Assembly: GCF_011745625.1 (NCBI RefSeq)
Contig: NW_027191465.1
Coordinates: forward strand, 310,001-374,000
Length of the DNA: 64,000 bases
Direction: 5' to 3'
From: Cladosporium halotolerans
Lineage: Eukaryota
Shown: one piece after another, positions 12,597 through 13,845 of the stretch
How the letters are laid out: the number at the start of each line of letters is the position of its first letter
Numbering within the stretch: the stretch's first letter is position 1
The notes under the pieces: model-generated
What the model was told of the DNA's origin: nothing
Databases searched by the model: none
Seen by the model: the letters and a program-made list of their open reading frames with translations, nothing else
Translations under genes and position numbers: made by a program

Positions 12597-13845
12597 ATGG
12601 CTACCACTGCTCCCATGGCTAGGATGCCATTCGGCGAGCTCAGCAGCTCCCGCGTGCAGCAGCTCTCGTCGGCCAAGAACCGCCAGAATGGTATGTCTGA
12701 TTCTGAAAACAGGCCCAATCAGGCAGTCGGATCATGTACTGAGAATCTTAGGTTTCCTGGCAAAGAGCTCTCCTTTGAGCGGCAAGCCATTGATGCCATC
12801 TGCGTCACCCGCCAAAAAGACCGGCAAACGCTCTTTCACTCCGTCATTCGACGATGTGGACTCAGAGAATGCCGACCCTTCGATGTTCTCACCTTCCAAG
12901 AAGAGCAAGAGCGAGGCGTGTGATAAGCCTTTCACCTTCTCCATGACCCCGGTGAAGTCGATGCCGCCACCCGCCCGCACACCAGCTCGGTCCAACATCT
13001 CGTCTCCGCGAGCACCTCTCACAGCCCCGGCCGGACGCTCTCCTCCCAGGAAGACTGGAGGCATTTCGAAGAACCGTCGTGTCTCGGCGCCCTTTACTCG
13101 CATCGATCCACCTTTCCTCTCTCGTGGATCATCATCGCTCCCCTTCAGCCTGGACGCGGCTATTAGCGGAAGCATCTCCACCACCAGTACTCCCACAAAG
13201 AGCAAGTCCGCCGGCTCGACCATCCAGGAGAGCATGCCGGCGAGCTGGAGCTTTGAGATCTACGAAGACTCACCTGAGGAGGAAGCTGCCAACCTCATGG
13301 AGCACAGCACGCAGATTCTGGACCTGAGCTCCGACGATGAGGCCGCCAAGGCCCGCAAGGATTACAGAGGCAAGGAGAACGAGGCACCCGAGGGCTACGA
13401 CGCCCCTTCTGCTTCTCGTCCAACCGCTACTGCTACCGAGGCCCCACTGCCTTCTCCCAAGCGTGTCAAGAAGACCGAGCTCATCCGCCGCAAGACTACT
13501 GAGATGGACGATGGCGAGCGTTCTCCCCTTTCAGACCTGGAGACGGACGACTTCGTTCCGGAGGGTCTTGCCAAGGATTCACACGTCGTCGTCGATGCTA
13601 CGCCTGAGAAGTCGACGTCCGACGCCAAGAGCACGCCTGCAGTTGCGCCTCCCGCGTTCACTTTCTCGAGTGCGAGGAAAGAAAGCAAGAAGGCATCGAA
13701 GCTTGCCATCTCGTCCGTTCTCCCTGTTGAGGACGAGGTCAGCGTCTGGGAAGACGATGCCGTGTCGAACGATGTCAGCTCGACAGAAGCTGTTGCGGAA
13801 ACCGAAGTGGCCGACTCTACCGACAAGGCGGCTGTCGCTGCTTGA
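12597..13845 (+). CDS. Disordered hypothetical protein with ABBA, KEN and D-box motifs (Acm1-like candidate)
   Basis: Exon 1 is 12597-12690, intron 12691-12751 (GTATGT...CTGAG...TAG), exon 2 in frame (KNRQNG|FLAK). The product is Ser/Pro-rich with many S/T-P-x-K/R sites and the motifs FEIYED, KEN and RSPLSDL. Confidence 0.85.

Follow-up and report, generated by a model that had tools for sequence, protein, structure and literature searches.

A disordered protein of filamentous ascomycetes with a conserved Acm1-type ABBA-KEN-D-box cassette, a candidate binder of the APC/C coactivator Cdh1

The locus described here raises the question of how the APC/C (anaphase-promoting complex, or cyclosome) carrying the coactivator Cdh1 would be switched off at the G1/S transition in filamentous fungi. 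For Aspergillus nidulans, no obvious homolog of Emi1, Acm1 or Rca1 is recorded in the excerpted text of Paolillo et al. 2018 (PMC6078057), where the cyclin PucA is described as essential for switching APC/C-CdhA off at G1/S, and a further excerpt reports that a gamma-tubulin mutant fails to inactivate APC/C-CdhA (PMC3432763). The DNA under study, referred to as the window, is a stretch of 64,000 nucleotides from Cladosporium halotolerans (assembly GCF_011745625.1, contig NW_027191465.1, positions 310,001 to 374,000). At positions 12597-13845 of its plus strand it contains a gene whose product is probably a coactivator binder with the layout of Acm1, and which may encode the inhibitor of Cdh1 presumed to be missing from moulds. 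An initial annotation of the window had named the product a candidate Acm1-like pseudosubstrate inhibitor and had stated that Acm1 is usually regarded as specific to budding yeasts; on the latter point the literature agrees (PMC5179498, PMC6078057). With its Acm1-type cassette of degron motifs, the family to which the product belongs is a concrete candidate for the agent of Cdh1 shut-off at G1/S in filamentous fungi.

The region contains two overlapping reading frames, 12597-12923 and 12688-13845, which are joined by a 61-nucleotide intron into a two-exon gene with a product of 395 amino acids. Exon 1 (12597-12690) starts with the ATG at 12597 and comprises 31 codons and the first base of codon 32, the intron (12691-12751) reads GTATGT...TAG, and exon 2 (12752-13845) includes the TGA stop codon at 13843-13845; the gene bounds had been placed correctly in the initial annotation. 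Residues of the protein are numbered within exon 2, starting from the F encoded at 12754. The splice is documented by public contigs that are 95-99% identical to the window. One contig each in the runs X13, X2 and X4, which belong to three different studies, lacks exactly these 61 bases with their GT..AG ends, whereby the end of exon 1 is confirmed; the contig from X4 spans the region from 12365 to past 14098. Run X13 is RNA on record, X2 and X4 are RNA by guess, and a single contig from X1, which is probably DNA, retains the intron. Such contigs are evidence that the spliced form exists, not of its level or strand. That the gene is real and spliced as described is practically certain.

The core of the protein is a cassette of three short motifs. 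The ABBA motif FEIYED (13252-13269) lies within WSFEIYED (13246-13269), in which an invariant tryptophan stands two residues before the motif. It is followed by a helix formed by residues 174-184 and by the block NLMEHST..LDLSSDDE (together 13273-13341), which are marked out by the confidence of the structure prediction, by conservation and by contacts in the complex model. Next comes GKENEAP (13369-13389), a KEN box with its K at 13372 and a proline at position +3. The cassette ends with RSPLSDLETDDFVPEGL (13519-13569), which combines the destruction box (D box) RSPLSDLET (13519-13545) with a conserved C-terminal extension that emerges from a profile of 461 sequences. The starting positions of the three motifs had been given exactly in the initial annotation.

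Conservation of the cassette was counted in those fetched homologs that comprise at least 300 amino acids (307 or 308 proteins). The pattern W.F.I[FHYR].[DE] is present in 301 of 307, KEN..P in all 307, and in 306 of 307 the KEN box has a D box of the form R..L..[LIVM] after it. Taken in order, the pattern F.[ILV][FHY].[DE], KEN, R..L..[ILVMK] was found in 305 of 308 homologs, whereas 15,400 shuffled versions of these sequences did not yield it once, so that chance can hardly account for the cassette. The strict form is missing from three homologs, P0179, which has R at ABBA position 4, P0190 and P0256; the last is a protein of 346 amino acids with a cluster mate of 433 amino acids. The distance between the ABBA motif and the KEN box is 30-44 residues (median 34) and that between the KEN box and the D box 16-69 residues (median 38). 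An alignment of 29 sequences that represent several classes has a mean column identity of 29% and contains 21 invariant columns; twelve of these fall within the cassette, namely W165, F167, I169, L189, D190, D194, K207, E208, N209, P212, R256 and L259.

The profile of the D box was derived from 461 distinct sequences, a set rich in Aspergillus and Penicillium. R at position 1 and L at position 4 occur in 100%, P at position 3 in 88%, G at position 5 in 70%, D/E at position 6 in 92% and L at position 7 in 92%. Position 9 is A, T, P or V and never N. In the extension, position 11 is D/E, position 12 F/Y (98%), position 13 Y, I, F or V, position 15 E/D (85%) and position 16 G/D (92%). In 60% of the sequences the proline is preceded by S or T at position 2 (R-[ST]-P-L), so that a minimal site for cyclin-dependent kinase (CDK) lies inside the D box.

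The family is widespread among moulds. A word-seeded search yielded 362 proteins at E values of at most 0.01 among 7,998 scored candidates, the best named match being a hypothetical protein of Cladosporium fusiforme with 72% identity. In a profile search of 1.84 billion representatives, 584 clusters (formed at 50% identity) were found at E values of at most 1e-3; at the stricter limits of 1e-10 and 1e-30 there are still 441 and 222, respectively. The taxonomic range rests on the named members among the best 120 or 150 matches listed, all of which are filled by Pezizomycotina. These members represent five classes, Dothideomycetes, Eurotiomycetes (Fonsecaea, Malbranchea, Coccidioides, Histoplasma and many Aspergillus and Penicillium), Sordariomycetes (Sodiomyces, Xylariaceae, Fusarium, Escovopsis), Leotiomycetes (Coleophoma) and Lecanoromycetes; lichen-forming lineages with members are Xylographa, Vezdaea and Piccolia. 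In one set of 10 members, 8 could be given names, and in a second set of 10 this applied to 3, two of them with an organism. The orthologs in A. nidulans and Aspergillus niger are AN7996 and An02g10230, respectively. One member, P0079, is labelled as Quercus suber (cork oak) and is 58% identical to the window protein; it is probably a fungal contamination of the plant assembly.

Nearly all members carry the labels 'hypothetical' or 'uncharacterized' or the UniRef name 'Thymidylate kinase', and two (P0444, P0496) bear enzyme names. No support for the enzyme labels was found, neither as a Pfam family in the precomputed columns of the members nor as a thymidylate kinase gene nearby in the window, and the name 'Thymidylate kinase' looks like a propagated annotation error. 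In the main texts covered by the literature search, AN7996, An02g10230 and Q5AUN4 appear only in an annotation of secondary-metabolite gene clusters. The family is unannotated so far. Nothing tying Acm1-like inhibitors to Pezizomycotina was found among the papers listed by a literature search of main texts.

The protein itself was described as disordered in the initial annotation, and this is borne out by its AlphaFold2 model, calculated from the alignment of 29 sequences, with a mean pLDDT (predicted local distance difference test) of 50.9 and a pTM (predicted template modelling score) of 0.19. The sole confident element is the helix 174-184, which directly follows the ABBA motif (167-172) and lends the block 171-180 a pLDDT of 85; a short helix at 133-138 is also present in the model. 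Serine (16.5%), alanine (11.9%) and proline (10.1%) are prominent in the composition. The SPSKK motif and the many CDK consensus sites pointed out earlier are indeed there: 14 S/T-P sites were counted, of which eight are full [ST]Px[KR] sites (SPAK, SPSK, TPVK, TPAR, SPPR, TPTK, SPKR, TPEK). A search of the protein against Pfam at E values up to 10 returned no family. Sub-threshold matches to Cyclin_N2, the APC/C-binding region of cyclin A with its D box and ABBA motif, are found in 3 of the 29 aligned members (best E value 0.12).

Modelling with the WD40 domain of Cdh1, which had been suggested in the initial annotation, gave a result in its favour. The window was found to contain no gene for Cdh1 or Cdc20, and the partner was taken from metagenome contigs, which were scanned for a short motif of Cdh1, written as a degenerate pattern. 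The locus chosen, L073, has an open frame of 477 amino acids that scores 495 bits against the human Fizzy-related protein and 412 and 379 bits against yeast Cdh1 chains, compared with 349 bits against human Cdc20 and 326 bits against Slp1 of Schizosaccharomyces pombe. Because the Fizzy-related/Cdh1 scores exceed the Cdc20/Slp1 scores, L073 is a Cdh1; judged from its sequence alone, it would be of Pezizomycotina type. Two close relatives, L048 and L077, are 89% identical to it, and all three are fungal-looking Cdh1 genes with the whole WD40 domain and the C-terminal isoleucine-arginine (IR) tail in one open frame. In the numbering of yeast Cdh1, which was checked on R253, L255, P258 and F286 as named by He et al., L073 retains four residues of the yeast ABBA site (I311, L325, K333 and P374) but carries T in place of I344, and the human row has Ala at K333, all according to our own reading of the alignment. 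In the yeast complex, E65 of Acm1, which is ABBA position 5, pairs with K333 of Cdh1; the equivalent residue is Thr in yeast Cdc20, and ABBA motifs are not bound by human Cdh1 (PMC5717348). In the present family, ABBA position 5 is Glu in 57% of the sequences sampled, a point in favour of binding of the Acm1 type.

The complex of the L073 WD40 domain (331 amino acids) with residues 155-275 of the window protein reached an interface score (ipSAE) of 0.85 in each of three runs, as against 0.00 for the best of three controls; of 78 solved complexes, 51 attain the mark applied to this score, and of 108 mismatched pairs, 2 do. Contact agreement between the runs is 62% or more, and the pLDDT of the partner is at least 53. 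On the side of the window protein, the modelled interface is formed by residues 167-172 (ABBA motif), 176-191 (helix), 204-212 (KEN box) and 256-264 (D box). On the side of Cdh1, contact residues 14-19 correspond to the yeast stretch R253-P258, which is the D-box receptor, residues 85-90, 99-106 and 133-136 belong to the ABBA groove and include the counterparts of L325, I344 and P374, and the remaining contacts are residues of the top face. Each of the three motifs is thus placed on its respective receptor. Cdh1 was the only coactivator modelled, and the C-terminal motif VSVWED lies outside the modelled segment.

From these results a function can be proposed. The gene product would be a disordered regulator of Pezizomycotina that binds an APC/C coactivator, likeliest Cdh1, and acts as Acm1 does. 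Binding of a coactivator through the cassette is likely; for the further step, action as a pseudosubstrate inhibitor or modulator, the chances are about even, and the proposal taken as a whole is equally finely balanced. Action of the Acm1 type is proposed because the motifs are invariant, the ABBA-KEN distance is fixed, position 9 of the D box is never Asn and the D-box extension is conserved. With its three short motifs, one chain would occupy three degron receptors of the WD40 propeller simultaneously. The ABBA motif and its helix would enter the groove between blades 2 and 3, KENxxP would sit on the top face, and R-x-P-L-G-[DE]-L would occupy the D-box cleft of the coactivator. Binding tightly as a pseudosubstrate, the protein would block access of substrates to APC/C-Cdh1 while CDK is active, and it would be removed later, perhaps through its N-terminal D-box-like motif and its xENxDP motif. 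CDK could tune binding or stability through the S/T-P sites, since these include the one within the D box in about 60% of the sequences. We infer binding in the cell, a preference for Cdh1 over Cdc20, inhibition as opposed to plain degradation, and control by CDK from the features described.

In a more far-reaching form, the family would supply filamentous ascomycetes with the stoichiometric inhibitor of APC/C-Cdh1 (CdhA) that they seem to lack. It would be either an ancestral longer Acm1 or a convergent copy, and would be stabilised or activated by the G1/S CDK (PucA-NimX in A. nidulans). In that case, the way in which moulds turn Cdh1 off at G1/S would be explained. This form of the proposal is speculative and, on balance, rather unlikely.

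The conserved parts outside the cassette need to be considered before the proposal is weighed. The initial annotation had asked whether only the three motifs are conserved. The cassette is indeed conserved across classes in the order known from Acm1, but it is not alone, as other blocks are conserved, too; the islands of invariant columns in the 29 sequences are KR, xENxDP, AGRSP, PFSLDAAL, W.FxI, LD..D, KENxxP and RxxL. At the N-terminus, the initial annotation had seen an RxxL element in RVQQLSSAKN. This string has the form RxxxL, and the conserved element is the D-box-like motif RMPFGELSS (12621-12647) just upstream. It has R1, P3, G5, E6 and L7 of a D box and a non-canonical F instead of L at position 4, the family form being R[QV]PF[AG]xL; R.P[FL]..[LIVM] occurs within the first 40 residues of 172 of the 307 homologs, many gene models being without exon 1. 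The string RVQQLSSAKN itself is part of RVQQLSSAKNRQN (12651-12689), the conserved KNRQN block.

Further downstream, the KEN-type motif xENxDP is represented by DSENADP (12859-12879), of which E38, N39, D41 and P42 are invariant in the 29 sequences, and EN.[DE]P precedes the ABBA motif in 272 of 307 homologs. It is followed by SPSKKSK (12889-12909), a CDK-type site in a basic stretch, and by AGRSPPRK (13030-13053), in which the putative CDK site AGRSP stands beside a basic stretch that is possibly similar to a nuclear localization signal; G94 is invariant, and an AGRSP-like string is present in 267 of 307 homologs. The conserved block RRVSAPFTRIDPP (13075-13113) contains RRxSxP, which resembles a 14-3-3 or basophilic-kinase site and is a candidate for such a site only. 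The block LPFSLDAAISG (13138-13170), with invariant S132 and A136, is found in 274 of 307 homologs. Past the cassette, a second ABBA-like motif, VSVWED (13738-13755), is located toward the C-terminus. Its family forms are IEIWES and IIVWED, with IVIFED in some lineages, and the C-terminal pattern [ILVFA]x[ILVMF][WFY][EQ][DESN] occurs in 255 of 307 homologs. Each degron type is therewith present twice, the N-terminal RxPFxxL and xENxDP and the C-terminal ABBA-like motif doubling the set of the cassette.

Several points weigh against the proposed Acm1-like inhibitor. The complex model was made without alignments, by a method unproven for disordered chains, and with a Cdh1 from a metagenome contig, not from the organism of the window. 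That it passed may reflect memory of 4BH6 and other degron complexes, and it is to be read as a likeness, not as proof of binding. Position 5 of the ABBA motif is Val in 37% of the sequences sampled. No sequence-level similarity to Acm1 or to any other protein of the PDB was found. At E values up to 10, phmmer with the exon 2 protein of 363 amino acids and hmmsearch with the family profile of 29 sequences against all PDB chains gave no match, and phmmer with the cassette of 121 amino acids gave one irrelevant match, a designed helical repeat with an E value of 6.6. The set comprised chains of at least 20 residues and should therefore hold the Acm1 chain of 4BH6; similarity confined to motifs may be dropped by the filters of HMMER. 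Since the searches with protein, profile and cassette gave nothing relevant, homology to Acm1 is not demonstrated. Of the suggestion in the initial annotation that the product is a homolog or analog of Acm1, the part concerning the order of the motifs stands, to which an Acm1-like spacing can be added, and that concerning descent is unsupported; shared descent with Acm1 is regarded as doubtful.

The remaining points against the proposal coincide with those that speak for its strongest competitor. The protein could be an ordinary, unusually well-docked APC/C substrate, whose job lies in its other blocks, for example in regulating mitosis or S phase by binding CDK, a phosphatase, 14-3-3 or importin, and whose cassette serves its timely destruction. 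Multivalent degrons are normal in substrates (PMC4195823, PMC8764033, PMC9289945), and since genuine substrates, among them cyclin A and Clb5 (PMC4195823) and Hsl1 (PMC8764033), also have multi-degron layouts, binding does not imply inhibition. A lysine desert around the degrons, which would be a sign of a pseudosubstrate, was not seen in the protein; lysines occur in and around the cassette, where they make up 8 of 121 residues compared with 30 of 395 overall. Roughly every second conserved block is located outside the cassette and has yet to be assigned a partner, and the blocks AGRSP, RRVSAPF..IDPP and PFSLDAAL are left unexplained by the inhibitor model. A. nidulans does not survive the loss of PucA unless cdhA is deleted, and the excerpted account gives the conclusion of its authors that no other mechanism suffices to inactivate CdhA, the genetics thus showing no redundant inactivator (PMC6078057). 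This argues against a strong independent inhibitor; an inhibitor dependent on PucA-CDK would still fit. Set against the substrate explanation is the fact that the cassette carries 12 of the 21 invariant columns and keeps its ABBA-KEN spacing fixed at 30-44 residues. In addition, the absence of Asn from position 9 of the D box, a residue that favours the Apc10 co-receptor, and the conserved D-box extension are both features described for Acm1 in the excerpted literature. We consider a plain substrate unlikely, albeit the most serious alternative to an Acm1-like inhibitor.

A second alternative is that the protein acts on Cdc20, or on two coactivators at once, in the manner of Mes1 or of the ABBA-KEN-ABBA arrangement of BubR1/Mad3. 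It would explain the second set of motifs, which is conserved in 172, 272 and 255 of the 307 homologs and with which the pairs RxPFxxL/RxPLGxL, xENxDP/KENxxP and W.FxI[YH]x[DE]/[IF]x[IVL]WE[SD] can be formed, and it would also suit the Val instead of Glu at ABBA position 5 in 37% of the sequences. The ABBA-KEN-ABBA region of BubR1, with its constrained spacing, holds two Cdc20 molecules (PMC5179498), and Cdc20 and Cdh1 share their D-box and KEN receptors, according to the excerpts at hand (PMC3690534, PMC9289945). However, neither Pfam nor the AlphaFold2 model reveals a TPR domain, a Bub3-binding region or any other fold, and the additional motifs deviate from the norm, with F at position 4 of the N-terminal one and mostly W in the C-terminal one where an ABBA motif has F, H or Y. 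Compared with inhibition of Cdh1 in the manner of Acm1, this alternative appears quite improbable.

Securins are short, disordered and fast-evolving proteins with N-terminal D and KEN boxes, and their separase pseudosubstrate motif is of the form acidic-x-x-Pro. If the family were the securin of filamentous ascomycetes, the N-terminal D-box/KEN-type degrons would be those of a securin and the C-terminal half would bind separase; a lead in this direction, and a lead only, is that the nearest named cluster of the protein atlas (Ascomycota, with a non-significant score of 0.77) has Pfam Securin on 55% of its members, and no described securin of moulds was found by literature search. This idea is very improbable, as neither the window protein nor any of the 29 members matches Pfam Securin (PF04856) at E values up to 10, the securin cluster of the atlas is not that of the present family, suggesting a securin of its own in ascomycetes, the Pro of YEDSP, a string that resembles a securin pseudosubstrate, is present in only 34% of 457 sequences (its Glu in 57%, with Val instead in 37%), and the conserved C-terminal half is explained in full by motifs of coactivator type, which in the model dock on Cdh1.

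Summarizing, an Acm1-like inhibitor of Cdh1 is the reading preferred here. If true, it would extend Acm1-like regulation past the Saccharomycetales. The family would then be a clear case of a module of short linear motifs that is kept with fixed spacing across fungal classes and is invisible to ordinary sequence searches. If the protein were only a substrate, it would still be a new conserved target of the APC/C in moulds.

The surroundings of the gene are of a general nature. Its neighbours in the window encode a DNA ligase, Xrn1, a WD40 protein of the RBBP4/CAF1C type, an ArfGAP, a Ysc84-SH3 protein, a DEDDh exonuclease and an ARID protein, and further an E1 dehydrogenase, a VHS-SH3-GAT protein, PAN2, a DEAD helicase and a cutinase. 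These are ordinary housekeeping genes without evident functional link to the gene in question. The open frames 14656-15312 and 15716-16861, both on the plus strand, match the first and the last part of Pfam T6SS_Tle1-like_cat, an alpha/beta-hydrolase family, and are probably one gene split by an intron. A long open frame at 47702-53011 (plus strand, 1,769 amino acids) has no Pfam family at E values up to 1e-5. The hexamer ACGCGT of the MluI cell-cycle box is found at 12572-12577, which is 20 nucleotides before the ATG of the present gene, and again at 3758-3763, about 120 nucleotides upstream of the gene for DNA ligase (713-3640, minus strand). It is given no weight as an indication of transcription at G1/S, because the window contains 11 copies where 16 would be expected.

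Among known systems, securins (Pds1, Cut2, PTTG; PF04856) share with the present protein the disordered nature of a cell-cycle protein and the N-terminal degron-type motifs, but here the Pfam match and a conserved pseudosubstrate Pro are absent. The N-terminal region of cyclin A and Clb5 is likewise disordered and contains, besides D and KEN boxes, an ABBA motif of the type F-x-I-[HY]-x-D; these proteins are, however, substrates and not inhibitors, and the window protein has no cyclin box. Mes1 of S. pombe and OSD1 of plants are small disordered proteins, too, with a KEN- or GxEN-type motif and a D box as pseudosubstrate motifs. In contrast to the present family, they are meiosis-specific, and no ABBA motif is mentioned for them in the excerpted source, by the description of which they are set beside it here (PMC3690534). 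In BubR1/Mad3, as here, ABBA-type motifs flank the KEN box with constrained spacing, a further KEN-type motif is located N-terminally and the same pseudosubstrate logic would apply (PMC5179498). It differs in that the present protein has no TPR, Bub3-binding region or kinase domain, carries a strong D box between the KEN box and the second ABBA-like motif, and has mostly W at position 4 of the latter.

The closest counterpart is Acm1 (APC/C-Cdh1 modulator 1 of Saccharomyces cerevisiae, structure 4BH6), which has been assigned to the Saccharomycetales (Di Fiore et al. 2016, PMC5179498). The comparison is limited to the residues named in the excerpts of He et al. 2013 (PMC3690534), from which the following description is taken. 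Acm1 has an N-terminal D box (DB1) that is specific for Cdc20 and serves in its destruction, and this box is highly conserved among Acm1 orthologs (PMC4114781). Its A motif (residues 61-70, with F61, Y64, E65 and E66) continues as a helix to residue 80 and lies between blades 2 and 3 of the propeller. A conserved NEN (residues 90-92) fills a KEN receptor, followed by the KEN box at 98-100 with S102-P103 and by DB3, which starts from R119 and continues with A121, L122, K123, D124 and L125; S comes next, and position 9 is occupied by V, a rare residue there. Acm1 further has a 'K motif' and, at T161, a site for 14-3-3. The D-box extension of Acm1 is reported to act on Apc10 and to lower processivity (Qin 2019, as cited in the excerpt of PMC12401543), and Acm1 with its high-affinity D box mutated becomes a substrate (as cited in the excerpts of PMC12401543 and PMC9289945).

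The likeness of the present family to Acm1 is one of short motifs and their layout. Both are disordered, and both have, in the same order, an N-terminal D-box-type motif (a putative one here, with F at position 4), an ABBA motif with a following helix, KENxxP and a D box with a non-consensus residue at position 9. Acm1 inhibits APC/C-Cdh1 but not APC/C-Cdc20, and it binds 14-3-3 in dependence on phosphorylation; in the window protein, RRxSxP would be the candidate for such a site. The ABBA-KEN distance is 31 residues in Acm1 compared with 30-44 here, and the KEN-D-box distance is 18 compared with 16-69 (median 38), so that the Acm1 values, as derived from the residues named in the excerpts, fall at the lower end of the family ranges. 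CDK sites stand beside the degrons in both proteins, all three motifs fit one Cdh1 propeller, for the present protein as predicted by the model, and the residues after the D box, functional in Acm1 according to the excerpted citing paper, are conserved here. An extra xEN motif is common to both, located between the ABBA motif and the KEN box in Acm1 and far upstream in the present family. With 395 amino acids the window protein is about twice as long, the central inhibitory region of Acm1 lying within residues 59-128, and beyond the parts known from Acm1 it carries another ABBA-like motif along with several conserved blocks. The range is Pezizomycotina in the present case, in contrast to the Saccharomycetales for Acm1 (PMC5179498). 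Kinship between the two being unproven, what would be new here, as judged from the motifs, is an Acm1-type cassette that is embedded in a longer protein with extra motifs and is found in another subphylum.

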